DNA from: Chloroflexota bacterium
Lineage (GTDB): Bacteria > Chloroflexota > Dormibacteria > CF-121
Length of the DNA stretch: 50,695 nucleotides
Assembly: GCA_005880605.1 (NCBI GenBank)
Contig: VBIS01000081.1
Coordinates: 1 to 50,695, forward strand
Direction of reading: 5' to 3'
Shown: piece after piece, positions 12,854-36,642 of the stretch
How the letters are laid out: every line of letters starts with the position of its first letter
Numbering within the stretch: the first letter of the stretch is position 1
Notes under the pieces: generated by a model
Told to the model about the DNA's origin: nothing
The model's input: only the letters and a program-made list of their open reading frames with translations
Database searches by the model: none
Made by a program: the position numbers and the translations under genes

Positions 12854-14822
12854 TGGTGCCAATGGTGGGCAGCTGCGCCGTCGGGGCTTGCGTTTCGGTC
12901 GGCGCATTGAGCAGCCCATAGGCGAGCACGATGGCAACCGCAACCGCGAGCGCCGCCGGAATCAGATCGGTTCCTCGGACCCGCTCCGGACGCTCGCCGG
13001 TATTCTGGGCCGACTCGCGATAGATCTGGCGGAAGGGGGTGAGGTGGATGCCCTCGGCGGCGAAGCTCGCCCAGGGCGCGCTGGCGAACACCCAACCCTC
13101 GAATAGCAGCATGATGGCGAGGATGCCGGTGGCGATCGCTGGTGCGGCGATCAGCATGACGACAGCCCCGACGATGGTGGCCGCTGCGACCAGTGATTCA
13201 AAGGCCGACGACCGGATGGCCGGCCACAGCCGCCGCCCACCTTCTTTTTGCTTGGGGGTGCGCAAGAAGGCGGCGCGTCCGCTCCAGAGCCCGCGCACCG
13301 CGGCCAGGGCGTCGACCCAGCTCAAGGCGAACCAGATTCCCATCGCCCGAAAGGCGTCGCCCCAGGTGCACCGCTCGGCTCGGCGGAGCGCCCACAAGCC
13401 GCGCAGGACGCCAGAGGCAAGAAAGGCCAGGGGCACGATCAGCACGGGACCGGTGATCTCGCGGATGGGCAGGCGATGGTGCATGGCCGCGGCCACCGCG
13501 GTCAGCAGCAGGAGGGCCGTAAACCCGGCGGTCAGCAGATCGCCGAACCAGTGGATGCTTCCCAGCAGGTAGTTGATCCGCTGGGCCCATGTGAGCCGAA
13601 GGCGGTGGTGGGTGAAGGGCACGAGCTCTGACCAGTGCCGGCGGAGGATCTGGATCCCGCCAAGCGCCCAGCGAAAGCGTTGCTTCTTGAGTCCGTCGAA
13701 TGTCAGCGGCATCAAGCCCTGGCCCCACGCCGTGGGCTCGTAGACTCCGATCGCTCCCTGCCCCAGCATGCGAAGGCTGGCGTCCGCGTCTTCCGTGATG
13801 TTCGCTTCGTCCCAGCCACCGATGCCTTCAAGCGCTGAGCGGCGGATCAATCCCATCGTGCCCGCGAAGATGATGGCGTTGCGGTTGGCGCGCGAGGGCA
13901 TCGACACGTCGAAGAAATACTTGTAGCTGTAGTAGAGGCCACGCAGGTAGCCGCTATCCTGCCAGTCGCGATAATCCTGCGGGGTTTGCACGAAAGCGAC
14001 GCGATCATCGGCAAAATGACCGACCATCGCCGAAAGGAAGCCTGGCTTGACGATGTAGTCGGCATCGACGATGCCGAGGATGCTGACATCTAACGGCAAC
14101 CGTCGCGTCGCCTCGTTGAGCGCCCCGGCCTTGTAGCCCGGCCACGGTTCCAGATGCATGAACTGAAATCGTTGTCCAAGCTCCCGGCACAGTTGCTCGA
14201 GTGCTCGCCACAATTTTGGATCTCTGGTGTTGTTATCGACGACCTGCACGATGACGTCCGGGTAGTCGAGCTTGGCGAGCGCGGTCAGCGTTTCGCGCAT
14301 CACCTCGATGGGCTCGTTGTAGCACGGCACCTGCAGCGCCACCTTGGCTCGATAGGACGGATCGGCGACGTGCTCGATCCGCGTCCGGCGGCTGAACACG
14401 TCGAGGATCTCGAACAGGTAGTAGACGCTGAGCATCAACGCAAACGCCTCCATCAGCAGTAGCACGTAAGAGGCGATCACGCCAACCGGACTCAGGCGGT
14501 CGATGATCGGAAGGGCGGCGGCGTACGCGAGATAGCTGATCGAGGCCAGGAACACCATAGCGAGGGCATTGGCCGCGAGCACGCTCCAACGCGACAACCA
14601 GAGCCGAACCAGCAGCACGGCCACCGCCGCAGCGACGACTAGCGTCGTCCCCGCGGCTGGATCGCCCGTGATCCAGGCGGTAAGCCATCCGGTGGCGGCG
14701 ATGATGGCGAGGCCGACCGGGACCCCGACCCAACCGCGCGCCCGCACCAGCCCGGGAACCGTCACGGCAATCGTCGTGAAGGCGGAGGCCAGCGCAAAAA
14801 ACAGGGAAAGCTCGAGCAGCAC
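12741..14822 (-). CDS. processive family-2 glycosyltransferase (cellulose/chitin/PNAG-synthase-like), polytopic
   Basis: 693 aa. N-terminal TM bundle, then GT2 motifs VPCYNEP, IVDADY, QTPQ, NITEDADAS and the processivity motif QRFRWALG, then about 6 C-terminal TM helices. GTG start. Confidence 0.85.
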   Translation of the reverse strand: MLLELSLFFALASAFTTIAVTVPGLVRARGWVGVPVGLAIIAATGWLTAWITGDPAAGTTLVVAAAVAVLLVRLWLSRWSVLAANALAMVFLASISYLAYAAALPIIDRLSPVGVIASYVLLLMEAFALMLSVYYLFEILDVFSRRTRIEHVADPSYRAKVALQVPCYNEPIEVMRETLTALAKLDYPDVIVQVVDNNTRDPKLWRALEQLCRELGQRFQFMHLEPWPGYKAGALNEATRRLPLDVSILGIVDADYIVKPGFLSAMVGHFADDRVAFVQTPQDYRDWQDSGYLRGLYYSYKYFFDVSMPSRANRNAIIFAGTMGLIRRSALEGIGGWDEANITEDADASLRMLGQGAIGVYEPTAWGQGLMPLTFDGLKKQRFRWALGGIQILRRHWSELVPFTHHRLRLTWAQRINYLLGSIHWFGDLLTAGFTALLLLTAVAAAMHHRLPIREITGPVLIVPLAFLASGVLRGLWALRRAERCTWGDAFRAMGIWFALSWVDALAAVRGLWSGRAAFLRTPKQKEGGRRLWPAIRSSAFESLVAAATIVGAVVMLIAAPAIATGILAIMLLFEGWVFASAPWASFAAEGIHLTPFRQIYRESAQNTGERPERVRGTDLIPAALAVAVAIVLAYGLLNAPTETQAPTAQLPTIGTITHTLPSIGPTPSPANSASPWRAAPGRRDRRGCTTGT

Positions 14823-14874
14823 CTACGTTTACGCTGCCATAACGCCGCCCGCAAGCGCTAGTGCGTGCTTGGAC

Positions 14875-16350
14875 TCAGCCAGAGCCGAAGTTGATCATGA
14901 TGTTCTTGATCTGGGTGTAGCTGGCCAGGGCTTCGACGCCCTGCTCCCGGCCGAACCCGCTGCGCCGGTAGCCACCAAACGGCAGGCCGATGCTGCCTTC
15001 CACGCTGTAGCCGTTGACCCTCACCTGGCCTGACTTGACCGCGCTCGCCACCGTCATCGCCTTACTCAGGTCCTTGGTCCAGACGCCCGTAACCAGTCCG
15101 TAGGGCGTGCCGTTGGCGATGGCGATCGCTTCGTCGAGCGACTCGAAGGTGGTCACGGTCAGCACCGGGCCGAAGATCTCCTCCTGCTCCAGGACCGATC
15201 CGCGCTCCACGCGATCGAGCAGGGTCGGCTCGATGAAGTACCCCGCCGCGAGTTCGCCGTCCTGCGCCCGGGCGCCGCCGGTGACCGCCGTCGCCCCATC
15301 ACGCGAACCCGCCGTGATGTAGCCGAGAACGCGATGCATCTGTCGCTCGCTGACCACCGGTCCCATGTCGGGGTTGTCGAGGCCGCGGCCCAACCGGATC
15401 GCCCTGATGCGTTTTGCCAGCAGGTCGACAAAGCGATCATGGGCCGGGCGCTCGAGCAGCAGTCGGGTCGGCGCGGTGCAGGTTTGCGCGGCGTTCTGCA
15501 TCAGCGTGCTGGCCGAGGACGCTGCGGCGCGCTCCAGGTCGGCGTCGCCGAAGACCACGTTGGGGGATTTGCCACCGAGCTCGAGTGTCACCGGCACGAC
15601 GTTGTCCGCGGCCGCCTTCATGATCGCGACGCCGGTGGGAACCGACCCGGTGAACGTGATGTGGTTGATGCCGGGATGCGATGCCAGCGCGGCCCCGGTT
15701 TCCCGTCCACCGGTTACGACGTTGAAGACGCCGGCCGGAAGGCCCGCCTCAACGGCCAGCTCGGCGAGGCGGACGATGCTCAACCCCGCCTCGGCAGCAG
15801 GTTTCGCCACCACCGCATTGCCGGCGGCGAGCGCGGGCGCAATCCCTCGGGACGCGAGCCGAAGCGGGTAGTTCCAGGGCACGATCTGAGCCGAAATGCC
15901 CAGCGGCTCTCGAAGCGTGAAGTCGACGAAACCCTGGCCGAGCGGAATGCTCGAGCCGAACACCTTATCCGCAACCCCGGCGAAGTACTCGAAATAGCCG
16001 GCGGCCGCCGCCACGTCGTCCTCGGCCTGCCGGAGGGGCTTGCCGACGTCCAGGCTTTCCAGTTCGGCCAGCTCCCGGGTGCGCTCCCGCAGCAGGCCGG
16101 CCAGCCGGTTGAGCAGGCGGACGCGTCGCACCGGAGGCAGACCGGCCCACCCCTGTTCTACGGCCTTGCGCGCCGCAGCGACGGCGGCATCGACGTCCGA
16201 TTTATCGCCGAGGGCGACCTGCGCGAAGACCCGCCCGGTCGCCGGATCGACGGCCTCGAAGGTCGCGCCCGATCGCGATCCGGTGCGCTGCCCGTCGATG
16301 AACATCCGCCCGTCGAGGGCGCTCAAGGCTGTCGTGCTGGAATCCGCCAC
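14875..16350 (-). CDS. NAD(P)-dependent aldehyde dehydrogenase
   Basis: 491 aa. Has FTGSVPTG, the catalytic-Glu region LELGGKSP, and the conserved EEIFGPV segment. Confidence 0.9.
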   Translation of the reverse strand: MADSSTTALSALDGRMFIDGQRTGSRSGATFEAVDPATGRVFAQVALGDKSDVDAAVAAARKAVEQGWAGLPPVRRVRLLNRLAGLLRERTRELAELESLDVGKPLRQAEDDVAAAAGYFEYFAGVADKVFGSSIPLGQGFVDFTLREPLGISAQIVPWNYPLRLASRGIAPALAAGNAVVAKPAAEAGLSIVRLAELAVEAGLPAGVFNVVTGGRETGAALASHPGINHITFTGSVPTGVAIMKAAADNVVPVTLELGGKSPNVVFGDADLERAAASSASTLMQNAAQTCTAPTRLLLERPAHDRFVDLLAKRIRAIRLGRGLDNPDMGPVVSERQMHRVLGYITAGSRDGATAVTGGARAQDGELAAGYFIEPTLLDRVERGSVLEQEEIFGPVLTVTTFESLDEAIAIANGTPYGLVTGVWTKDLSKAMTVASAVKSGQVRVNGYSVEGSIGLPFGGYRRSGFGREQGVEALASYTQIKNIMINFGSG

Positions 16351-24579: not shown

Positions 24580-26681
<2,102 letters not shown>

Positions 26682-26685
<4 letters not shown>

Positions 26686-29117
26686 GCGAGCAGGGCACAC
26701 CGCGCCGGATTCTGATCGCGGACGACGATCCGCAACGGCTGCGAAGCAGCGTCGAGCGACTGCAGCAAGAAGGCTTCAGGGTGCTCTCGGCGCAGGACGG
26801 CCTGGAGGCGCTCGACCGCGCGCGCGAGGAGCTGCCGGACGCCATCATCCTCAACCTGCTGCTGCGCCGTATCGACGGCCTTCGGGTGTGCGAAATCTTG
26901 AAGAGCAACCCGGCGACAACGAATATTCCCGTCCTGCTCACGGCGGGGGTGCACGTCGACGCCGACGAAGGCCAGCGAGCCCTCGCCGCCGGCGCCGACC
27001 GCTTCCTCAGCGACCTCAGCCCACTGTCAACTGGATCCGGTCGCGAGCTGGGGGCGGGCCAGGACCTGGTGCAGGCGGTACGCACCATGCTCGGCGCCGA
27101 ACCGGAACTCGAAGAGCGTCCCATCCTACTCGCGATCGACGACGATCCCGACAACCGGGCCTTCCTGACCAAGGCCGTCGTCAAGCAAGGCTTCGAGGTG
27201 GTGACGGCGCCCAACGCCACCCAGGCCCGCCGCCAACTCGACTCACGCCGGCCGTCGCTGATCTTCCTCGACGTGCAAATGCCGGAGGAGAGCGGGCTGG
27301 CCCTCTTACCCCAGATGCTGCGCGACTACCCGGAATCGGTGGTCGTGATGATGACGGCCTACGGATCGGAACAGGTCGCGGCCGAGGCCCTGCGGGGGGG
27401 CGCCGACGATTACATCGCCAAACCCATCGACCTGCAGCGCCTGCGCGCGCTGCTGGAGCGCAACCTCGAGAAACAGCGGCTGCGCGCCGAGCGCCAGAGC
27501 CTGGTGGCGCGGCTCAAGGATTCGAACCGCTACCTGATGCGCCAGCATGCCGCGCTGCGGCGCGCGGACGAAGAGATCCTGCAGATCAACCGTCAGCTAG
27601 AGCAGTCGAACCGCTACAAGTCCGAGTTCCTCGCCAACATGTCGCACGAGCTGCGCACCCCGCTCAACGCGGTCCTCGGCTTCAGCGAAATCCTCCTCGA
27701 CGTCACCATGAACCTCACCAGCGGCGAGCGGACCGAGTTTCTTCGCAACATCCACAGCAGCGGCCAGCACCTGCTCGGACTGATCAACGACATCCTCGAC
27801 CTGGCCAAGATCGAGGCCGGGAAGATGGAACTGAAGCCCGAAGAGATGCCCGTGGCGGAAGCCCTCCAGGAAGTCACCTCGATCCTGGAGCCGATGGCCC
27901 GCCAGCAAGGGCTGCAGCTGATGACCCTCGGCCTCAACGACGTGGGCATCATCAAGGCGGACCGCAGCAAATTCAAGCAGGTCCTCTACAATCTGCTGTC
28001 GAACGCGGTCAAGTTCACCCCGCCGCCCGGCCAGATCACGGTCACCCTGAAGGGTTCACCCGACCAGCTGACGGTTGCGGTGCACGACACCGGGATCGGG
28101 ATGAAGGAAGAGGACCTGCCCAAGCTCTTTCGCGAGTTCGAGCAGATCGACGGCTCCTATACGCGCCGCTACCAGGGCACAGGCCTGGGACTCGCCCTCT
28201 GCCGGCGCTTCGTCGAAATGCATGGCGGCCGAATCTGGGCGGAGAGCCACTTTGGCAAAGGATCAACCTTTACCTTCACCATCCCGCGGGACCCACGGCT
28301 CGGGCCGGCCAACGAGCCCTCCGGGGAGGAGGTCGCGCAAACGACCGAATCGATGGAGCTGCCCCTGGTCCTGGTGGTCGAGGATGACCCGGCCAGCAGT
28401 CAGCGTTTGACCGCCGAGATCCAGGGGGTGGGCTTTCGCGTGGCGCACGCGTTCGACGGCAACGAGGCGGTGCGCAAGGCGATGGAGATCCTGCCCGACC
28501 TGGTCGTGATGGAGACGGTCCTGCCGGTGAAGGACGGCTGGCAGGTGCTCCAGGAGCTTCGGGGCCGCGCCGCCACGGCCGATGTCCCGGTCCTGGTGTG
28601 CTCGGTGACCAAGAACCAGCAGCTGATGACCGAGTTCGGCGTGGTCGGGTACGTCGCCAAGCCCTGGGCGACCAAGACGTTGCAGGATGAGCTCCGGCGC
28701 GTCGGGCAGGGGATCAAGCGGCGCCGTGACCGGGTCCGGGTTCTGTTGGTCCATCGCGAGCGGCGCGCGCTGGCGCCGCTGGCGGCGGCACTGGTCGAGG
28801 AAGGGTTCGAGGTTTTCCGGGCGCCCGGGCTGCAGGAGGCCCTCGAAAAAGCCCGGGCTGCCGCTCCCGACGTGGTCGTGCTCGCACCCCCCGAGCCGGA
28901 ATGGGTTCTCGGCCTGCGCGGGCTCCCCGGGCAACCCGCCTTGCTCGCCCTGGGAGAAGTTTCACCGAGGGTGCCAGCGACGGCGTGGAGCGGCGTTATA
29001 CCTACCGGCCTCGTAGAGCCCGATGCCGTATTGCACGCCATCAAGGGCCTGGACATCGTTCAGAGGCGAAGGAGGACAGGGCGTGACCGGCGGCAAGGTC
29101 TTGATCGTCGAAGATAA
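26682..29117 (+). CDS. hybrid histidine kinase B: pseudo-REC(Asn) + REC + coiled coil + HisKA + HATPase_c + pseudo-REC(Glu) + degenerate REC
   Basis: 811 aa. ATGA overlap with the preceding gene. H-box MSHELRTPLNAVLGFSE and G-boxes DTGIGM / GTGLGLALC. Four receiver-like folds, read from their beta1/beta3/beta5 motifs (details in findings). Confidence 0.85.
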
Positions 29118-29472
29118 CCCGGTCAATCTCAGATTGGCCCAGTTCCTCCTGGAAAAGAAGGGGTTTACCGTGCGCAAAGCGGGCAGCGGCGCGGAGTGCC
29201 TGGCGGAGATGGGCCGGGAACTTCCGGATATCGTCCTGATGGACATCCAGCTGCCCAGCGAAGACGGCCTGGCCGTCACCCGGAAGATCCGTTCGGACCC
29301 GCGGCTGGCCGGGGTGATCGTGGTCGCGCTCACGGCGCATGCCATGGCCGGTGACCGGGAACGGATCCTGGCTGCCGGCTGCGACGGGTACATCCCCAAG
29401 CCGGTTGATCCCGCCGGGCTGCCGGGCGAGGTGGCGCATTACCTGGAGCAAGGGCGGTTGAAATCAGCCTGA
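29083..29472 (+). CDS. stand-alone receiver (CheY-like single-domain response regulator) C
   Basis: 129 aa from GTG 29083, with AGGAGGA 7 nt upstream. Canonical KVLIVEDN, IVLMDIQLP, VVALTAHA and GYIPKP. The track ORF starts at 29023. Overlaps gene B by 35 nt. Confidence 0.85.
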   Translation: MTGGKVLIVEDNPVNLRLAQFLLEKKGFTVRKAGSGAECLAEMGRELPDIVLMDIQLPSEDGLAVTRKIRSDPRLAGVIVVALTAHAMAGDRERILAAGCDGYIPKPVDPAGLPGEVAHYLEQGRLKSA

Positions 29473-29807
29473 TGCCTGAGCAAACACCGAAATCCACCCG
29501 CTCCTACCCGGAGATCCTCCAGCTGAACCAGGAGCTGGTGCGCAGCCTCCAGGGGTTGAGTGACGAGGACGAGGCCCGCAAGAAGGAGATCGAGCAGCTG
29601 AAGTTCGCCGTCGACCAGGCGAAGGCCGAGATCGCGCGGCTGCAGGAAGAACTTCGCCGCTCCAAGGAACGGGAGGCGGAGCGCCAGGAGGAACTTCGCC
29701 AGCTCGAGCAGGAACGCGTCGATCAGCTCGGGGCCCTGGACGCCCACCTCAACGCCATGCATTCGGCCGTCGAGCGCTACCTCCAGCAGGGTCGGAAGGC
29801 GGCCTGA
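29472..29807 (+). CDS. 111-aa coiled-coil protein D, paralog of the N-terminus of the next gene
   Basis: TGATG overlaps at both ends. Heptad-rich Glu/Gln/Arg/Leu sequence. The N-terminal RSYPEILQLNQELVRSLQGL parallels RSFADILQQNQEFIAHLQVL of gene E. Confidence 0.6.
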   Translation: MPEQTPKSTRSYPEILQLNQELVRSLQGLSDEDEARKKEIEQLKFAVDQAKAEIARLQEELRRSKEREAERQEELRQLEQERVDQLGALDAHLNAMHSAVERYLQQGRKAA

Positions 29808-32254
29808 TGAGTCCCGAGCCTTCCAAGGCGAGGTCGTTCGCCGATATCCTCCAGCAAAATCAGGAGTTCATCGCGCATCTCCAGGTTTTGCAAGAGGACA
29901 TCGGCACCCAGCTCGAGGAGAAGGAAAAGGAGCTGGCGATGGTCAGACGCCAGCTGGCCGCCAAGCAGCAGGAGACCGACGAGCTCCAGAATTCCCAGCT
30001 CCAGTGGGCGATCGACCGCCAGGGGCTTCTCGAACAACACGAAGGCCTCAAGCAGGGACACCAGGACCTCCAGCAGAGCCACGACCGTGCCCAGGTCGAG
30101 CTCGGCCGGCTCAAAGATGACGTCGCTCGCGCCAAGGCGCGCGATGAGGAGCGTCGCAACCAGCTACGACAGCTGGAGCAGGAGCGCATGCAGATCACGC
30201 AGAAATTCGAGGCCGACCAGAAGAAGGTGCGCGCCGATCTCAAGTCCGCGCAGGACGACCTCGACAGCCTGCAGTCGGCCCAGCTGCAGTGGGCGATGGA
30301 CCGCGAAACCCTGCTGAAAGACCGCGACACCGCCGTGGCCAAGCAGGCGCAGCTGGAGCAAGATTGGCAGAAGGCGCGCGCGGAGCTCACCCAGGACAAA
30401 GTCCGGTTGACCGAGCTCACGGCGCAACTCCAACAGCAGTTGAAGACGGTCCAGGCCGAGCTCGAGCCGCTCAAGGTGGCCCGGGACAAGTGGCAGGCGG
30501 AACGGCAGCGGCTGGTCGCCGACGTAGCGCGGCTGGAGCAGGGTGGGCAGGAAGCCGAGGCTCAGTTCAAGGCCGACCGCCGGCTCCTGCAGGGCCAGCT
30601 CGAGGAAGCCCGCAGGAAGGGCGCCGACCTCGACAAGGCCGAGGCCGAGTTCCAGCGGGTTAGCGACGAGCGCTCGGCACTCCTGAGCAAGGTCAAGGCG
30701 TTGGAAAAAGACTGGCAGCTCCGCGAGGCGTCGGTTGCCGAGGAAAAGTCGGCGCTCAAGAAGCAGGTCAGCGACGCAACCAGCAAGCTCGCCGCCGTGC
30801 TGCAGGACGCCGAAAAGCTCAAGGCGCTCCATGCCGACCTGGCCGGCGAGACCAGCCGCAAGGCGGAAGAGTGGACGGTGCGCGAGCAGCGACTCACCTC
30901 GGAGAAAAACCAGCTCAAGGTCGACCTGGAGCGGGTGCAAGCACAGCTCTCCGACATGATGTCGCAGACCAACGAGATGCACAGCCAGCGGGCGTCGGAA
31001 GCCAAGGAGTTGGACGAAGCCTGGAAACGGGAGAAGGCCTCGCTCAAGGCCCAGCTCGAGGAAGCCCGCAAGGCGGCCGGCAGCGGACCGCCAACCAGCC
31101 AGGTCCTGGCCCGCTACGAGGCGGAGAAGCGCGCCATGCAGGCGCAGCTGGATAGCCTGCGCAACGACCTGGCCGCCAGCGGCAAACACAAGGACACGGC
31201 GCCGGCCCTGTCTCAGGCGAAGCGCGACTTCGAAGCCAAGTTCCGCGTCATCTACGACCAGAGCCACGACCTCAATTCGCCGCTCAATGCGATCCTCGGA
31301 TTCAGCGAGATTTTGCTCGACGAGAAGGCCAACAAGACGACGCCCGAAGAGCGGCGCGAGTTCGTCGCCCACATCAACGAGAGCGGCAAGCGACTCGTCG
31401 AACACATCCGCGAGCTGATCGAGTTCGCCAAGCAGGAAGCCGGCATCCAGGAACGCCCGGTGCAGATGGTGCCCCCGGTCGGGACCGGCACCAAGCCGCC
31501 CGTCATCCTCGTCGCCGACAACGATCCGGCGGTCAAAGAGCGCATCGAGCCCTTCCTCCGCCACGCCGGTTATGAAGTGGTAATTGCCGCCAGCGCCCAG
31601 GAAGCCCTGCGCAAGGCGGTCCAATTGCAGCCCCTGGCCGTTCTGATCGATACCCAGCTGCCGCCCAACGGTGGGAGTGGCCTCGTCTATGACCTGCGAC
31701 GTGAGTCGAAAACCAAGGACATCCCGATCGTGCTGACCTCCAAGGTCAACAAGGAGTCGCTCGCGTTCGACATCGGTCAGGCCGACTTCCTGACCAAGCC
31801 GATCGACCGTCAGCAGCTACTGCAGATGATGGTCAAGTTCGACCTGCTCGCCGATGGCAAGCGTGGCAAGAAGACGCCGTCATCGGTCCTGATCGTGGAC
31901 GACGACCCGCAGAACATCCGCCTGGTCAAGGCCATGCTCAAGCCCTTCAACATCGAGGTGATGGTCGCCGACGGTGGCAAGGCCGGGGTCGAGATGGCGC
32001 TGAAGAAGAAGCCGGACCTCATCATCCTCGACCTGATGATGCCGGACGTCGATGGCTTCGAAGTCGTCTCCAAACTGAAAGAGGACGCGGCCGCCAGTCA
32101 GATCCCCATCCTTATCTATACCGCCAAAAACATCACGAGCGAGGATCGCGAGCGCCTCCAGGGGAACATCCAGTCGATCATCCAGAAAGGGGACTTTGGC
32201 AAAGACCGCTTCCTCGAGATGATCAACAACCTCCAGACCAGCCAGGCCGCCTAA
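29807..32254 (+). CDS. protein E: ~470-aa coiled coil + HisKA-like DHp (H-box, no ATPase domain) + two canonical receivers
   Basis: 815 aa. H-box YDQSHDLNSPLNAILGFSEILL (His codon 31265-31267). Only a Pro/Gly linker lies between DHp helix 2 and REC1 (VILVADND / VLIDTQLP / VLTS / FLTKP). REC2 reads VLIVDDD / IILDLMMP / LIYTA. No N/G1/G2 boxes. Confidence 0.85.
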   Translation: MSPEPSKARSFADILQQNQEFIAHLQVLQEDIGTQLEEKEKELAMVRRQLAAKQQETDELQNSQLQWAIDRQGLLEQHEGLKQGHQDLQQSHDRAQVELGRLKDDVARAKARDEERRNQLRQLEQERMQITQKFEADQKKVRADLKSAQDDLDSLQSAQLQWAMDRETLLKDRDTAVAKQAQLEQDWQKARAELTQDKVRLTELTAQLQQQLKTVQAELEPLKVARDKWQAERQRLVADVARLEQGGQEAEAQFKADRRLLQGQLEEARRKGADLDKAEAEFQRVSDERSALLSKVKALEKDWQLREASVAEEKSALKKQVSDATSKLAAVLQDAEKLKALHADLAGETSRKAEEWTVREQRLTSEKNQLKVDLERVQAQLSDMMSQTNEMHSQRASEAKELDEAWKREKASLKAQLEEARKAAGSGPPTSQVLARYEAEKRAMQAQLDSLRNDLAASGKHKDTAPALSQAKRDFEAKFRVIYDQSHDLNSPLNAILGFSEILLDEKANKTTPEERREFVAHINESGKRLVEHIRELIEFAKQEAGIQERPVQMVPPVGTGTKPPVILVADNDPAVKERIEPFLRHAGYEVVIAASAQEALRKAVQLQPLAVLIDTQLPPNGGSGLVYDLRRESKTKDIPIVLTSKVNKESLAFDIGQADFLTKPIDRQQLLQMMVKFDLLADGKRGKKTPSSVLIVDDDPQNIRLVKAMLKPFNIEVMVADGGKAGVEMALKKKPDLIILDLMMPDVDGFEVVSKLKEDAAASQIPILIYTAKNITSEDRERLQGNIQSIIQKGDFGKDRFLEMINNLQTSQAA

Positions 32255-32269: not shown

Positions 32270-34534
32270 ATGACAGCCCTCGACCGCCAGCTGGTCCGCC
32301 TCCGTTTCGCGGCGCTCGCGATTCCATTCGGCCTGCTGCTCTGGCTGCCGTCGGCGTCGGTGCCGGTCACCATCATCCTGGCCGGCCTGATGGCCGCCTA
32401 CAACGGCATCGCGCTGCTCGCGATCCGCAGGCGGGCGGCGCTGCGTTTCTCCCGGCCGATGGCGGTCCTCCTGCTGCTTCTCGACCACGCCGTCATCAGC
32501 GCCTGGATCCTGCTCTTCGTCAGCCCGTCCTCGAGCCTTCCCTACCTGCTCTACGCGCTGGTGGCCGCCGAAGCGGTCTTCCGGTTCGAGCTCTGGGGCG
32601 GTATCGGAACCAGCCTTTTCTTTACGAGCGGAGTGATCCTCTTCCAGACGAGCGACCTCGGTTTCGCCATCTCGGTCCGCGACTCGGTGCTCCGTGCCAT
32701 CCCCACGGTCGCCGTCATCACCGGGCTCGGTGCGGCGGTGCGCGCGATGAACACCGAGATCCGGGGCACCCGGCGGCGCCTCGATCAAACCGAACAATTG
32801 CGCAACGTGCTCGGCGAGCTGGTCGGACAGATGGACGTGTCGCGAATGCTCAACACCGTGATCCGCTGCGGCATGGAGCTGCTCCAGATGGACTCAGGCG
32901 CCATCGTCCTCCTCGATGAAGATCGCGGCGTGTTCACCTTGCGCGCCGCGGTCCGCCTCCCGGGGGCGGTCGAAGGCGATGCCGTCTCGGTGGCCGACGG
33001 CATTGTTGGCCGCGTAGTGCGCGCGAAGCGCTTCGTCATGTTGGGCGAGCCTCCACTCTTTGACCTGGCCACCCTCAATGCGGCCGGCTACGCGTGTGCC
33101 TTCGGTTCGCCGGTGCTGCTGGAAGGCAAGGTCTTTGGCGTATTGCACCTCCAGACCCGCGACAATCAGCGGCGCCTGACGCGGTGGGAGGAGGAGGCGC
33201 TCGAGGTCCTCTCGCAGCAGCTGGCGGTGGCGCTTCGCAATGTCCGTCTCTTCGACGAGAGCGAGAAGCGTGCGCGGCGGCTCGAGCTGCTCAACCAATC
33301 GATCGACCAGATGAACCAGAAGCTGTTCGAGCCCGAGTTGCTCGATGTCGTGGCCAGCGCGCTCACCGGCAACCTCGGGTTCGCGGCGGCGCAGGTCTGG
33401 CTGCTGGAGCCGAGCGATGGCGCGCTCTGGCGGCGTGCCAGCCACCACACCACCGCCAACCCGCCCCCCGTTCCCGGACGGGTCGAGCGCGGGATGAGCG
33501 AGATCGGCCAGGTGGCCGAACTCCGGGTGCCGATCGTGACCAATGACCCGGCCAACCATCGCCATGTTGGCCTCAACCCCTGGATGACCGAGGAAGGCAT
33601 CCAGGCCTTTGCGGGCTTTCCGCTGGTCGTGGGTGACCAGCTGCTGGGCGTGCTTGCCGTCTATCACCGACGTCCGCTCGACCGCAACACGATCGAGCTG
33701 CTGACCCTGTTCGCGCAGCACGCGGCCACCGCGATCCAGGAAGCGCACCTGTTTCACCTCGCCACCGAACAAACCGCACGGCTCACCGCGCTCAACGTCG
33801 AGCTGCAGCGCGCCAACCAGCACAAGGCCGAGTTCCTGGCCAACATGAGTCACGAGCTGCGCACGCCGCTCAACTCGATCCTGGGCTTCTCGCAGCTGCT
33901 GCTCGAGGGTGACGGCGGAGTCCTGAGCGGAGACCAGCGTCAGGACGTCGACATCATTACCCAGAATGGGCAACACCTGTTGGCTCTGATCAACGACCTG
34001 CTCGACATCTCCAAGCTGGAGGCCGGCAAGGCGCAGCTGCACCGCGGCGAGGTGGAGGTCGAGCCCCTGATTTTGGAGTGCGTCGAAAGTGTCAGCTCGC
34101 TGGCCAAGACCAAGAAGCTCGACCTGAGTGTCAGCGTCTCCGCCGAGGTGGGACGCGTCTTCGCCGACGGTCCGAAGCTCAAGCAGGTGCTCCTGAACTT
34201 GCTCGGCAACGCCATCAAGTTCACAGAGACTGGCAGCGTCCGGGTCACCGCCGAGCGCCAGGGCGCGGAGCTGCGGGTGAGTGTCCGCGACACGGGGATC
34301 GGCGTTCCGGTTGAGGACACGGAGCGGATCTTCGAAAGCTTTACGCAGGGAAAGAGCGGCATCAGCGGCAAGTACCAGGGCACCGGCCTGGGCCTCGCGA
34401 TCTGTCGCCAGCTGGTCGAAATGCACGGTGGCCGAATCTCCGTCAAGAGCACGCCCGGCCAGGGAAGCACCTTCAGCTTCACCATTCCCCAACGCGCACT
34501 CCCGGACGCGATCGATCTATCGAGCGCGGCCTAA
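32270..34534 (+). CDS. sensor histidine kinase F: polytopic N-terminal domain + two GAF-like domains + HisKA + HATPase_c
   Basis: 754 aa. About 5-6 N-terminal TM helices, H-box MSHELRTPLNSILGFSQ, N-box LNLLGNAIKFT and G-boxes DTGIGV / GTGLGLAIC. GGAGGG lies before the ATG, 15 nt after gene E. Confidence 0.85.
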   Translation: MTALDRQLVRLRFAALAIPFGLLLWLPSASVPVTIILAGLMAAYNGIALLAIRRRAALRFSRPMAVLLLLLDHAVISAWILLFVSPSSSLPYLLYALVAAEAVFRFELWGGIGTSLFFTSGVILFQTSDLGFAISVRDSVLRAIPTVAVITGLGAAVRAMNTEIRGTRRRLDQTEQLRNVLGELVGQMDVSRMLNTVIRCGMELLQMDSGAIVLLDEDRGVFTLRAAVRLPGAVEGDAVSVADGIVGRVVRAKRFVMLGEPPLFDLATLNAAGYACAFGSPVLLEGKVFGVLHLQTRDNQRRLTRWEEEALEVLSQQLAVALRNVRLFDESEKRARRLELLNQSIDQMNQKLFEPELLDVVASALTGNLGFAAAQVWLLEPSDGALWRRASHHTTANPPPVPGRVERGMSEIGQVAELRVPIVTNDPANHRHVGLNPWMTEEGIQAFAGFPLVVGDQLLGVLAVYHRRPLDRNTIELLTLFAQHAATAIQEAHLFHLATEQTARLTALNVELQRANQHKAEFLANMSHELRTPLNSILGFSQLLLEGDGGVLSGDQRQDVDIITQNGQHLLALINDLLDISKLEAGKAQLHRGEVEVEPLILECVESVSSLAKTKKLDLSVSVSAEVGRVFADGPKLKQVLLNLLGNAIKFTETGSVRVTAERQGAELRVSVRDTGIGVPVEDTERIFESFTQGKSGISGKYQGTGLGLAICRQLVEMHGGRISVKSTPGQGSTFSFTIPQRALPDAIDLSSAA

Positions 34535-35124
34535 CCGAGCAGGCCGCTTATCAACGCGATCGCGACCAGCACCATCACGCCGGCGGCCGCGAACTGGAGC
34601 GGGCGCTCCGGGATCCAGGCGCCGAGGCGGTTCCCGAGGACGACCGCGATCGCCGACACCGTCCACAGTGCCAGCGTCGCCGCCGTAAAGACGATCAGCG
34701 GCTCGCGATAGCGAGCCTGCAAGGCGGCCGTGGCCAGTTGCGAAAGGTCGCCCCACTCGGCGACGAAGACCACCATGAACGCCGTCAGGAATGGACGCCG
34801 GTAGCGGCCTTCCTCGCGTTCGACCTCGACCGCCTCCTGGGCCTCGGCCTGCTTGAGGTTTTGCCGGATCAGCAGCCCGGCCATGACGAGAAAGAGAATG
34901 CCCGCGCCGATCCGCACGGGTTCGCGAGGAAGCAACCCGAAGATCGAGCCGGCGATCACGGCCACCAGGCTCTGCACCAGGAAAGCGGCGGCGGCGCCGA
35001 CGAACACCGGGATGGGGCGGTGACGAGTGGCGAGCAGCAAGGCGGCCAGCGCCGTCTTATCTGGCAGCTCGATCAGAAAGATGACGACGAAGACGGTGAA
35101 GCCAAGACCCAGCGCGTGAGTCAC
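34531..35124 (-). CDS. GDT1/TMEM165 (UPF0016) family cation (Mn2+/Ca2+) transporter
   Basis: Two copies of the family motif (ELPDKTALAAL and EWGDLSQLATAAL) in a 6-TM protein. GTG 35124 start overlaps the upstream stop (GTGA); the track ORF extends to 35187. Confidence 0.8.
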   Translation of the reverse strand: MTHALGLGFTVFVVIFLIELPDKTALAALLLATRHRPIPVFVGAAAAFLVQSLVAVIAGSIFGLLPREPVRIGAGILFLVMAGLLIRQNLKQAEAQEAVEVEREEGRYRRPFLTAFMVVFVAEWGDLSQLATAALQARYREPLIVFTAATLALWTVSAIAVVLGNRLGAWIPERPLQFAAAGVMVLVAIALISGLLG

Positions 35125-35696
35125 CGAGTCAGAACCGCGTCGATCCGCTGGTTCTGTTTGCGGGCCAGGTCCACCAGGCTGGTCCACGGCCAGGGCTCAC
35201 CAAAAGCCGAGGCGCTCAAGGCACTGACAATGGGTCCGTGGCTCCAGACGAGGTAGCGCGCCGAACCAGGCCCGGCGGGTCCCGTGGTCAATTGCTCCAG
35301 GGTTGTCGTGTGACTGGCAGCAACGGCGAGCGGTGGCCCGTCATGGCTCGCCATGATCCGCACCTGGGCACTGGGGTTTTTCAGAGTCCGGTTCAAGAAC
35401 CCCGCACGGGCGGCGTCAGCATCCTCGTCAGTGGCGAGCGGTGTCGCCTGAACCCACAGCCAACGGTCATTCGATGGGGCCTTGAATGACCGCCACGCGG
35501 TCAGGCCCCCGAGTCTCCGGACGCGGACGGCCCAGGGTTCCGCGCCTGCGCCACTGCGCCACCGTCTCTCGTCGAGCACCGTCCACTTTGGTGGAAGGTC
35601 TTCCAAACCAATGAGCAACCCGCGAGGCTCGGGGAGATGCCGGCTTGCTCGGACTCCGATCTGGCTAAGCGCCAGCCGCAGCCGCCGCAGATCCAT
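35121..35696 (-). CDS. hypothetical protein (192 aa)
   Basis: Lies between the OmpR-type regulator and the GDT1 gene on the same strand. Start at ATG 35696; the upstream part of track ORF 35121-36002 is out-of-frame overlap with the regulator. No family recognised. Confidence 0.45.
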   Translation of the reverse strand: MDLRRLRLALSQIGVRASRHLPEPRGLLIGLEDLPPKWTVLDERRWRSGAGAEPWAVRVRRLGGLTAWRSFKAPSNDRWLWVQATPLATDEDADAARAGFLNRTLKNPSAQVRIMASHDGPPLAVAASHTTTLEQLTTGPAGPGSARYLVWSHGPIVSALSASAFGEPWPWTSLVDLARKQNQRIDAVLTR

Positions 35697-35775: not shown

Positions 35776-36642
35776 TCAGCCCGCCATCGCCAGTGGTTCT
35801 TGCCCCGCGGGGTAGTTGACCTTGGCGCTGAAACGATAGCCGACGCCACGCTTGGTCTGGATGTAGACGGGTTTGCTGGGGTTGGGTTCGATCTTGCTGC
35901 GCAGGCGCGAGATGTGCACGCGCAGGCCCTCTTCGTAGGCTTCCTCGTCGCCCGCCCATGCCTTGGCCAGCAAGGTCTCGTTGGTGACGACCCGGCCGGC
36001 ATTACGCACCAGCAGGAAGAGCAGCTTCGACTCGGTCGGGGTCAGCGTGACCTGCTGGCCTTTGACGCGAGCCCAGTGCTGCACGAAGTTGATTTGCAAT
36101 TCCTGGTCGATGACGACCTCCGGCTGCTCGACGCCGGCGGACTCGCCGTAGCGGCGCAGCACACGCTGCACCCGGGCGACCAGCTCTTCTTTTTCAAAGG
36201 GCTTGACGATGTAGTCCTCGGCGTACATCTGGAGGCCTTCCACCTTGCTCTCCACCGCCGCCACCGCGCTCAGGATGACGATCGGGACATCGAGGTGACT
36301 CTTGATCCGGCGGCACAGTTCGAAGCCGTCCATCTCCGGCATCATCAGGTCGACGACGACCAGGTGCGGGATGCCCTCGTGGAGTTTGCGCAGCGCTTCG
36401 GGACCACTACCGGCGGTCATGACCTCATAGCCGGCGTGCTCCAGGATGCGCTTCAAGATCTCGCGCGCCATTGCATCGTCGTCGACGATCAGGATCCGAT
36501 ACCGGTTGACGATGTTTAACCCCTCTCTTCCGGCGGCCAGTGCGCGCCGCGCTGCCGACCGGCCACCATGGATTTGGACCTGCGGCTGCTGGCTCAGGTC
36601 CGACTGGAGAGCCGGCAAAGATATATGGCCCTCGTCATGCAT
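35776..36642 (-). CDS. OmpR/PhoB-family response regulator (REC + winged helix)
   Basis: RILIVDDD, VVVDLMMPEMDG, ILSA and YIVKPF, then the winged helix LTPTESKLLFLLV...VHISRLRSKIE...IQTKRGVGYRF. ATG 36642 gives a 45-aa N-terminal extension. An SD (GGAAGAGAGGGG) also sits 6 nt before in-frame ATC 36513. Confidence 0.85.
   Translation of the reverse strand: MHDEGHISLPALQSDLSQQPQVQIHGGRSAARRALAAGREGLNIVNRYRILIVDDDAMAREILKRILEHAGYEVMTAGSGPEALRKLHEGIPHLVVVDLMMPEMDGFELCRRIKSHLDVPIVILSAVAAVESKVEGLQMYAEDYIVKPFEKEELVARVQRVLRRYGESAGVEQPEVVIDQELQINFVQHWARVKGQQVTLTPTESKLLFLLVRNAGRVVTNETLLAKAWAGDEEAYEEGLRVHISRLRSKIEPNPSKPVYIQTKRGVGYRFSAKVNYPAGQEPLAMAG

Follow-up and report, generated by a model that had tools for sequence, protein, structure and literature searches.

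Protein E of a Dormibacterota two-component operon: a kinase-less DHp hairpin and two receiver folds on a coiled-coil stalk

Introduction

The window analysed here is a stretch of 50,695 nucleotides (positions 1 to 50,695 of contig VBIS01000081.1, assembly GCA_005880605.1) from a Chloroflexota bacterium of the GTDB lineage Dormibacteria; CF-121. It contains a six-gene two-component operon, A-B-C-D-E-F. Gene E (29807-32254, + strand) codes for a protein of 815 aa with a coiled-coil stalk, a kinase-less DHp hairpin, the pseudo-receiver REC1 and the canonical receiver REC2. Gene D (29472-29807, + strand), located directly in front of it, codes for a coiled-coil protein of 111 aa. Both open reading frames were confirmed as initially annotated, while the attribute 'giant' given to E in that annotation is not appropriate for 815 aa. 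The locus raises the question of what a DHp with its phospho-acceptor histidine can do in a protein without the ATP-binding (CA) domain of a histidine kinase.

Judged by its domain order and its homologs, E descends from a hybrid HisKA histidine kinase and has lost the CA domain. It belongs to a family which, among the matches listed, is sharply bounded by sequence score and restricted to Dormibacterota. To our knowledge, this phylum is abundant in soil and has no cultured representative. For E itself, we see an even chance that it acts as a dimeric, ATP-independent His-Asp exchange module on a coiled-coil stalk, serving as intermediate, hub or buffer of a phosphorelay.

Domain architecture of E

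In a Pfam scan of E, HisKA (PF00512) was found at residues 482-546 (E-value 2.5e-13, 50.3 bits against a cut-off of 26.9), together with two Response_reg stretches. HATPase_c gave no match at E ≤ 0.1; the kinases A, B and F of the same operon each matched it at 1e-30 or better in the same kind of scan. The HPt domain (PF01627) was likewise not detected at E ≤ 0.1, and E is hence not an HPt protein. Comparison with NCBIfam yielded partial matches only, which run through the receivers and the DHp and stay far below the cut-off (e.g. 98 versus 890 bits for BarA).

The full-length AlphaFold2 (AF2) model of E is of low confidence (predicted local distance difference test score, pLDDT, 58.6; predicted template modelling score, pTM, 0.25) with clear secondary structure. 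Helices extend over residues 11-216, 220-345, 350-422, 430-457, 462-486, 491-504 and 513-544, and two (beta-alpha)5 domains come after them. For residues 462-815, a further model based on a diverse family alignment reached a pLDDT of 75 overall and of 83-91 in the receivers. It places the boundaries of the DHp helices at ~465-504 (alpha1) and 513-544 (alpha2), REC1 at 566-685 and REC2 at 693-808. The 21 residues in between DHp and REC1 (545-565, 31439-31501, + strand) form a disordered Pro/Gly linker with a pLDDT below 50 in both models. This is the slot of the CA domain in hybrid kinases, and ordinary relatives of E carry a CA domain of ~115 aa there.

When the E model was compared to the PDB with Foldseek, the tandem receivers of PleD ranked first, followed by single receivers (RR468 and DivK, root-mean-square deviation, rmsd, 1.4-2.2 Å), and no GHKL ATPase was found among the matches. 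Searches with phmmer using the CA domains of A, B and F detected a CA domain in all ordinary relatives and in no member of the family. A cryptic Bergerat fold was ruled out by Pfam (E ≤ 0.1), both AF2 models and Foldseek, with nothing of the kind between DHp and REC1 or in the stalk. The initial annotation had stated that E offers neither room nor motifs for an ATP-binding domain, which is borne out by these results, and the peptide strings and Pro/Gly linker (547-565) it quoted are exact in the sequence. Sequence and models thus support the view that E cannot autophosphorylate. Because the CA domain is absent, E does not count as a sensor histidine kinase.

Distribution and genomic sites of the family

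A word-indexed search for close orthologs resulted in at least 283 matches. The best 120 of these are at least 80% identical to E, are 769-864 aa long and contain HisKA and REC only. Their annotation reads 'response regulator' or 'CheY-like', and they originate from metagenome-assembled genomes (MAGs) of Candidatus Dormibacteraeota or of soil 'Chloroflexi'. An exhaustive search of 1.84e9 representatives added 15 full-length clusters at 50% identity, in which DHp, REC1 and REC2 are contiguous as well. The other full-length DHp-bearing matches among the top 150 all have a CA domain between DHp and receivers, in the order DHp-CA-REC-REC(-REC-REC). A profile built from distant members separates the two groups: family members, all without HATPase_c, score at least 401 bits, and the next matches, all with HATPase_c, at most 212 bits.

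Members share further features. Their N-terminal regions are heptad-periodic throughout (183-585 aa, z=7-17). An N-terminal PSFxxLL...L head and the KPIDRQQLLQMMVKFDLLAD segment occur family-wide, and a KRGERRxR...AA tail is common to members outside the operon clade of E. Paralogs have diverged to ~33% identity, yet the His and one receiver Asp are essentially invariant.

The available names point to Dormibacterota. Loci in related genomes are designated by L-numbers and homologous proteins by P-numbers in the following. A wide distribution beyond this phylum found no support in a genome scan, which returned at least 80 loci; outside the operon type of E, only L003-L005 among the matches listed have a contiguous DHp-REC-REC, whereas the others are ordinary hybrid kinases with a CA insert. 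The architecture search proposed in the initial annotation therefore showed the order coiled coil-DHp-REC-REC to be real, but not unique to this locus, as it defines a Dormibacterota family with orphan paralogs. The annotation had also held that no family of this architecture was described. NCBIfam, Pfam, PDB sequences and the literature indeed returned nothing specific, although the general class 'HisKA, no HATPase' is already part of two-component system censuses (PMC5847659). The literature search likewise found nothing specific on Dormibacterota two-component systems or on DHp-only phosphotransferases fused to receivers.

The family occupies at least three syntenic sites, of which the site in the window is the sole one in a kinase operon. 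At the second site, the order is uvrA-uvrC-(zf-C4_ClpX)-X-lgt-whiA-gap-pgk-tpi (L004, L086, L088), and at the third ackA-aldo/keto reductase-MFS-X-amidohydrolase-M20 (L087, L089), with the paralog at position X. Further sites are those of L003, L005 and L085. No adjacent kinase or D gene was found at the paralog sites other than the kinase operon. The most populous orphan type (~556-734 aa) occupies the uvrA-uvrC slot (L004, 5989-7659; L086, 7001-9205; L088, 5001-6782). The orphan paralogs of L087 (1251-4800) and L089 (428-1543) lie two to three genes from acetate kinase, and the one of L087 is also near phosphoketolase. Acetyl phosphate is a product or substrate of both enzymes and is known as a small-molecule phosphodonor of receivers. 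In protein P0299 (597 aa), the family head and the Trp motifs are present, while DHp and receivers are missing. The last ~70 residues are rich in Pro, Gly and Arg and look out of frame. P0299 may not be a stalk-only paralog, but the product of a frameshift in the gene or of an error in the assembly.

DHp hairpin and H-box

The DHp hairpin of E (462-544, 31190-31438, + strand) is of the HisKA type according to Pfam and AF2. With a ratio of nonsynonymous to synonymous substitution rates (dN/dS) of 0.007 it is highly constrained. The codon CAC at 31265-31267 (+ strand) was confirmed to encode His487, which takes the phospho-acceptor position of the H-box SHDLNSPLN. Conservation was counted over 120 close homologs (the operon clade) and 77 distant family members, 197 in total. 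His487 is kept in all 197, as are Gly+11, Phe+12 and a Ser or Thr at H+4, while Asn+7 is kept in 196. The residue at H+1 behaves differently. It is Asp in 120/120 members of the operon clade, but acidic in only 10/77 distant members, 43 of which have Leu instead.

In HisKA domains, the acid at H+1 is needed for autophosphorylation and is part of the E/DxxT/N phosphatase motif, and His-to-Asp phosphotransfer is catalysed by the receiver. The His is invariant while the H+1 acid is dispensable, which points to phosphotransfer as the common function of the family. The initial annotation had reasoned that the His could only be phosphorylated in trans or serve as a phosphotransfer or phosphatase site. 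Its exclusion of autophosphorylation stands, given the missing CA domain, and its phosphotransfer option has gained strength from the counts above, whereas the conserved chemistry had to be revised to the His plus the Asp of REC2.

The same H-box provides the arguments for a dedicated phosphatase or phosphate sink. The DHp of E would then dephosphorylate C or the input receiver of B, and/or REC2 would drain the kinases, so that E sets a threshold for A, B and F without onward transfer. The H+1 Asp and H+4 Ser of the operon clade (H-D-L-N-S) come near the E/DxxT/N motif, H+4 is Ser or Thr in 77/77 distant members, and alpha1 of the E DHp resembles that of B and could dock the same receivers. 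In addition, a phosphatase role was among those proposed for 'HisKA, no HATPase' proteins (Galperin et al. 2018, PMC5847659). The H+1 acid is, however, lost in 67/77 distant members with the His invariant, and the residue at H+4 in E is Ser instead of the canonical Thr or Asn. Kinases of the EnvZ type do not need the His for phosphatase activity, and its conservation is thus better explained by phosphotransfer. We consider a dedicated phosphatase or sink unlikely, but members of the operon clade, including E, may have phosphatase capability in addition.

Alpha1 of E following the His (LNAILGFSEILLD) is almost the same as in kinase B (LNAVLGFSEILLD), with 15/20 residues identical from the His onward. 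This similarity would also fit a heterodimer of the E DHp with the DHp of B, A or F, in which either His487 is phosphorylated in trans by the CA domain of the partner or E acts as a dominant-negative titrator of the kinase. By gene order, E is co-transcribed with three kinases, and HisKA autophosphorylation often takes place in trans within the dimer. On the other hand, the shared alpha1 motif is a generic consensus of hybrid kinases and not specific, the orphan paralogs have no linked kinase, and the long stalk of E is without counterpart in A, B and F. Pairing between different histidine kinases is rare as well. Such a heterodimer is, in our opinion, very unlikely.

Receivers

The receivers of E were aligned with CheY and Spo0F. 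REC2 (693-808, 31883-32230, + strand) has the full set of active-site residues, with D698, D699, D742 (codon 32030-32032), T772 and K794 at CheY positions D12, D13, D57, T87 and K109. The CheY position Y106 is aliphatic, and P110 is replaced by Gly-Asp. D698, D699, T772 and K794 are conserved at or near 100% in the family, and D742 is kept in 196/197 members. The model of REC2 (pLDDT 83-89) superposes on RR468 and DivK within the rmsd range given above. REC2 also shares a (D/N)P(V/Q)N(L/I)RL alpha1 with the single-domain receiver C, which is typical of relay receivers.

REC1 (566-685, 31502-31861, + strand) corresponds to CheY in D12 (D571), D57 (D615), K109 (K664) and P110 (P665), but has N572 at the D13 position, S645 at T87 and Phe at Y106, as well as a shortened alpha4. 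The D13 position is acidic in 0/197 members, where N, H, P, A, Q, I, T or K was found. The acceptor is Asp or Glu (Glu in 4/77 distant members), and the T87 position is occupied by V, A or L in 54/77 distant members. Hence, of the 'two canonical receivers' initially annotated, only REC2 holds up. REC1 is one of the two most constrained parts of E (dN/dS 0.006), which argues that it is a functional pseudo-receiver and not a decaying one. The invariant KPIDRQQLLQMMVKFDLLAD segment forms its end and runs into the REC1-REC2 linker. With REC1 as a pseudo-receiver, the conserved chemistry of the family comes down to one His and one Asp, the latter in REC2.

Proposed function

In the His-Asp exchange reading, E would dimerise in parallel through the four-helix bundle of its DHp and through the stalk. 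Asp742 of REC2 would be phosphorylated by ATP-dependent kinases, for which A, B and/or F are the candidates at this locus. B is a particular candidate donor, because its own C-terminal receivers are without acceptor Asp. The phosphoryl group would then be exchanged reversibly between Asp742 and His487 of the same dimer, and His487 would pass it to, or drain it from, other receivers, e.g. the adjacent single-domain receiver C. E would in this way unite a receiver and a DHp-type phosphotransferase in one protein. REC1 may position or gate REC2, as Rec1 does in ShkA, and the stalk may provide oligomerisation, spacing or localisation.

Domain anatomy and conservation were read directly from E and its homologs, while each step of phosphoryl flow, the dimer and the role of D are deduced from them. 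Several points weigh against this reading. Direction and partners of the phosphotransfer are entirely inferred. Asp at H+1 and Ser at H+4, kept without exception in the operon clade, make a phosphatase role possible for this subfamily. Most paralogs are orphans without adjacent kinase or receiver, and E is linked to A, B and F by gene order alone. Even if phosphorylation of REC2 only regulated a structural stalk, one would expect His and Asp to be conserved, though this alone would not account for the His. Finally, the AF2 models are monomeric and the full-length one scores low, so that dimer, orientation and extended stalk are inferred.

Coiled-coil stalk

The stalk (E 11-457, 29837-31177, + strand) is a heptad-periodic helical region with Trp motifs, an internal repeat and helix breaks, and its ~450 residues take the place of a sensor module. 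A, Q, L, E, K and R are abundant in residues 10-457, and Pro and Gly are scarce. Hydrophobic periodicity at 3.5 residues is pronounced in this part (z=12.4 against 500 shuffles) and in D (z=6.5), compared to z=-1.6 in the receiver region. The initial annotation of ~470 aa of uninterrupted heptads was therefore right with regard to periodicity, but not with regard to continuity. AF2 breaks the helix four times, at 217-219, 346-349, 423-429 (with GSGPP at 425-429) and 458-461, and the heptad register shifts several times.

At its N-terminus, the stalk carries a conserved 'head' (E 8-31, ARSFADILQQNQEFIAHLQVLQED; 29828-29899, + strand) with Asn18 at a heptad a position. The head segment is also present in D, with Asn19 at the equivalent a position. 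An internal repeat of ~96 aa, in which residues 45-140 match 141-235, was not detected by BLAST self-comparison, but by Smith-Waterman alignment with shuffles (z=9; 0/300 shuffles reached the score), and a third copy is weaker. Seven Trp residues of the stalk are invariant or nearly so among close homologs and have the sequence context W-x(2-3)-(D/E/K)R; two of the seven lie in QLQWAxDRExLL motifs. The ~96-aa repeat and the Trp residues suggested spectrin-like three-helix repeats. These are not supported by the secondary structure from AF2, which shows continuous helices of 206, 126 and 73 residues and not 30-residue helices with loops, though the full-length model (pTM 0.25) is too weak for a judgement on tertiary packing.

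Indels of 28 and 49 residues in the stalks of homologs are both multiples of seven, and the stalk is, as far as these alignments tell, evolving in length by whole-heptad modules. P0117 has a 28-aa insertion (four heptads) in an earlier part of the stalk. The orthologs P0036 and P0114 have, at alignment columns ~99-147, extra inserts of 49 aa (exactly seven heptads) and 39 aa, respectively, which are tandem duplicates of the following segment RQ.LL.QH..LKQG...LQQSHDRAQ.EL.RLKDD.ARAK.

The stalk gave no Pfam or NCBIfam match above threshold and no PDB sequence match at E ≤ 1. Known coiled-coil, cytoskeletal or SMC families (DivIVA, FilP/Scy, crescentin, SMC) were considered for the stalk and for D and rejected, since Pfam, NCBIfam and PADLOC gave generic sub-threshold matches only, with the generic coiled-coil ones falling on D, and PDB sequences none.

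A heptad stalk of 183-585 aa in every family member, along with the conserved Trp motifs and head, could also mean that E is mainly a structural or localisation scaffold. The stalk would then be the output, phosphorylation of REC2 would switch assembly or partner binding in the manner of FrzS and AglZ, which combine a receiver with a coiled coil, or of PsmA, and the DHp would mainly be a dimerisation module. The location of orphan paralogs beside housekeeping genes (uvrABC, lgt, whiA, dnaE) and the duplication of stalk sequence only in D agree with a scaffold, for which PsmA, a kinase-like scaffold protein, is a precedent (PMC12963549). However, a structural DHp needs no invariant His, N+7 and G+11-F+12, and constraint on E is weakest in the stalk (dN/dS 0.135 versus 0.006-0.007 in REC1 and DHp). 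Nor was homology to a known cytoskeletal or coiled-coil family found. A mainly structural role seems improbable to us, although it would be compatible with a phosphotransfer hub and does not exclude one.

Gene D

D was initially annotated as a truncated duplicate of the E N-terminus. This could be substantiated and goes beyond similar composition: BLASTP of D against E gave E=1e-9, and DNA identity is 70% over 107 nt. Alignment of D with the E family by hhalign (97.4% probability, E=1.5e-11) matches D 6-84 to E 5-31 and 78-129 across a single gap of 46 aa, with 42% identity over the aligned columns. The 246 homologs of D (97-126 aa) are all found inside the operon clade and differ by indels of 7 and 14 aa, which are again multiples of a heptad. 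The dN/dS of D (0.24) indicates purifying selection, but faster evolution than in C or E.

A conserved tail of 27 residues (DQLGA..AHL.AM.SAVERYLQQGRKAA) has no counterpart in E. Its origin from a frameshifted copy of E was considered and dismissed, as no significant six-frame match was obtained.

D is absent from the ortholog operon of L083. It is thus regarded as a clade-specific partial duplication and a recent addition, which is not essential to the function of the family. We conclude that D is an accessory and not a core part of the mechanism.

When heptads are laid out from F11 in E and Y12 in D, N18 of E and N19 of D fall on the same a position. Asn at this position favours parallel in-register pairing of coiled coils. 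D probably pairs with the N-terminal head of E or competes for its partners, and co-assembly of both proteins, which the initial annotation had considered, is plausible from their sequences.

Going further, the stalk might serve to place the exchange module. A parallel coiled coil would hold the His-Asp module at a set distance or site, or in filaments, and the output would be spatial or mechanical and not transcriptional. With its Asn at the same a position, D would heterodimerise with the stalk head and, as a cap in stoichiometric amounts, control assembly or partner binding. If true, E would be a signalling organiser specific to Dormibacterota. We regard this as a rather speculative extension with a low likelihood.

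Genomic context

The operon is located on the + strand and starts with A (24580-26685), a GAF-GAF-HisKA-HATPase_c kinase with synteny in L001 and L002. It is followed by B (26682-29117), a kinase of the order REC*-REC-HisKA-HATPase_c-REC*-REC*. C (29083-29472) is a canonical single-domain receiver of 129 aa from a GTG start, which is the start called in relatives. Downstream of D and E lies F (32270-34534), a kinase with an N-terminal hydrophobic region and then GAF-GAF-HisKA-HATPase_c.

At the C/D (29470-29474) and D/E (29805-29809) junctions, the stop codon shares the sequence TGATG with the next start codon, and a GGAAGG motif resembling a Shine-Dalgarno sequence is present ~8 nt upstream of the ATG of E, within the D coding sequence. 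Both features would fit coupled translation of C, D and E. The order A-B-C-(D)-E-F with overlapping stop and start codons is conserved in the loci compared (L001, L002, L083). In the Dormibacteraeota MAG loci L001 and L002, the order is the same, and protein identities amount to 81-91% for A, B, C, E and F and ~72% for D. The ortholog operon of L083 (64% identity) reads A-B-C-E-F, with C overlapping E directly. E and F are adjacent in both L083 and L084.

Kinase B comprises four receiver-like folds, with an acceptor Asp only in the second (~148-260). The acceptor position is Asn in the first fold, which also has Ser instead of the conserved Lys, and Glu in the third (~562-680); the fourth (~685-790) is fully degenerate. 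Since the C-terminal receivers are without acceptor Asp, B is predicted to be a 'hybrid' kinase that cannot phosphorylate its own C-terminal receivers.

An OmpR-type response regulator (35776-36540, - strand; REC and Trans_reg_C in relatives; 97.6% identical in L001) is divergently placed ~1.2 kb downstream of F, past a GDT1-family transporter (34531-35187, - strand). The operon may have its transcriptional output in this regulator. In L001, an ICMT/PEMT-family methyltransferase (14739-15344) is found between F and the GDT1 transporter, for which there is no room in the window (F ends at 34534 and the GDT1 gene at 34531). Upstream, L001 features CSD, ArsR-type HTH and LMWPc genes.

The G+C content of the window is 63-69%. 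Long antisense open reading frames across E (e.g. 30164-31624, - strand) were treated as artefacts of high G+C content, because all domain and homology evidence lies on the + strand. An anti-phage defence system was considered for the locus and rejected, as PADLOC gave only partial receiver-like and coiled-coil matches.

Implications

The general class 'HisKA, no HATPase' is already known. What is new is a lineage-specific, well-delimited family with multiple paralogs in Dormibacterota. HisKA proteins without a kinase domain have been on record for twenty years, none of them is known to have been characterised, and the E family offers a clean natural experiment on DHp function. If His-Asp exchange is demonstrated, a canonical DHp can be a phosphotransferase without a remnant of the CA domain, unlike Spo0B and ChpT, and pseudo-receiver gating as in ShkA would exist outside true kinases. 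With several ancient paralogs at conserved chromosomal sites, the family also provides a first view of signalling and cell organisation in Dormibacterota. Even if E is only a phosphate sink, its annotation should be corrected from 'response regulator / CheY-like' to kinase-less DHp-REC*-REC protein.

Comparison with known systems

FrzS and AglZ of Myxococcus have a receiver at the N-terminus and a coiled coil at the C-terminus, without DHp. PsmA of Streptomyces is a kinase-like polarisome scaffold that keeps the CA domain and lacks the His (PMC12963549). As in E, domains of the two-component type are attached to an extended scaffold or serve as one, and the signalling domains of all three are non-canonical. 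PsmA is the opposite of E, in which the CA domain is absent and the His kept, and no homology of E to FrzS, AglZ or PsmA was detected.

Kinases of the ArcB/BarA/TorS type (DHp-CA-REC-HPt) resemble E in having a His-Asp relay inside one polypeptide and are the source of its partial NCBIfam matches. E differs in that CA and HPt are absent and the second His-type site is the DHp itself, and its scores are far below the cut-offs.

Spo0B of Bacillus and ChpT of Caulobacter keep a degenerate CA-like alpha/beta domain and have neither receivers nor a coiled coil. Like E, they contain a kinase-derived helical hairpin. They are dimers whose His shuttles phosphate between receivers without ATP, which is the function proposed for the DHp of E. 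In E, by contrast, nothing of a CA domain is left, and two receiver folds follow the DHp in the same chain. Among PDB matches at E ≤ 0.001, none pointed to sequence similarity of E to Spo0B or ChpT.

'HisKA, no HATPase' proteins, listed as 'possible incomplete histidine kinases' (P2CS; Galperin et al. 2018, PMC5847659), include REC-PAS/GAF-HisKA regulators such as AF_1472. They were proposed to act as phospho-acceptors, in phosphotransfer or as phosphatases, and none has been studied experimentally (PMC5847659, PMC1183210). With a HisKA domain, a conserved His and no ATPase domain, E fits this class, which is descriptive and not a homologous family. Its members are mainly archaeal and have PAS or GAF sensors and an N-terminal REC, whereas E belongs to Dormibacterota and has a stalk, a C-terminal pseudoREC-REC and no detectable sensor domain.

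The closest parallel is ShkA of Caulobacter crescentus, with the order DHp-CA-Rec1(pseudo)-Rec2. Its Rec1 is inactive in phosphotransfer, has the acidic pair replaced and the acceptor Asp kept, and gates Rec2 (PMC6969517). ShkA and E both have a DHp, a pseudo-receiver with defective acidic pair and retained acceptor Asp, a canonical C-terminal receiver and a conserved linker between the two receivers, and both are without a conventional N-terminal sensor domain. Rec1 of ShkA binds cyclic di-GMP. In contrast to E, ShkA has a functional CA domain, autophosphorylates and has no coiled-coil stalk, while REC1 of E differs from Rec1 in that the first acidic residue (D571) is kept. In its DHp-pseudoREC-REC portion, E is thus most like a ShkA from which the CA domain has been removed.

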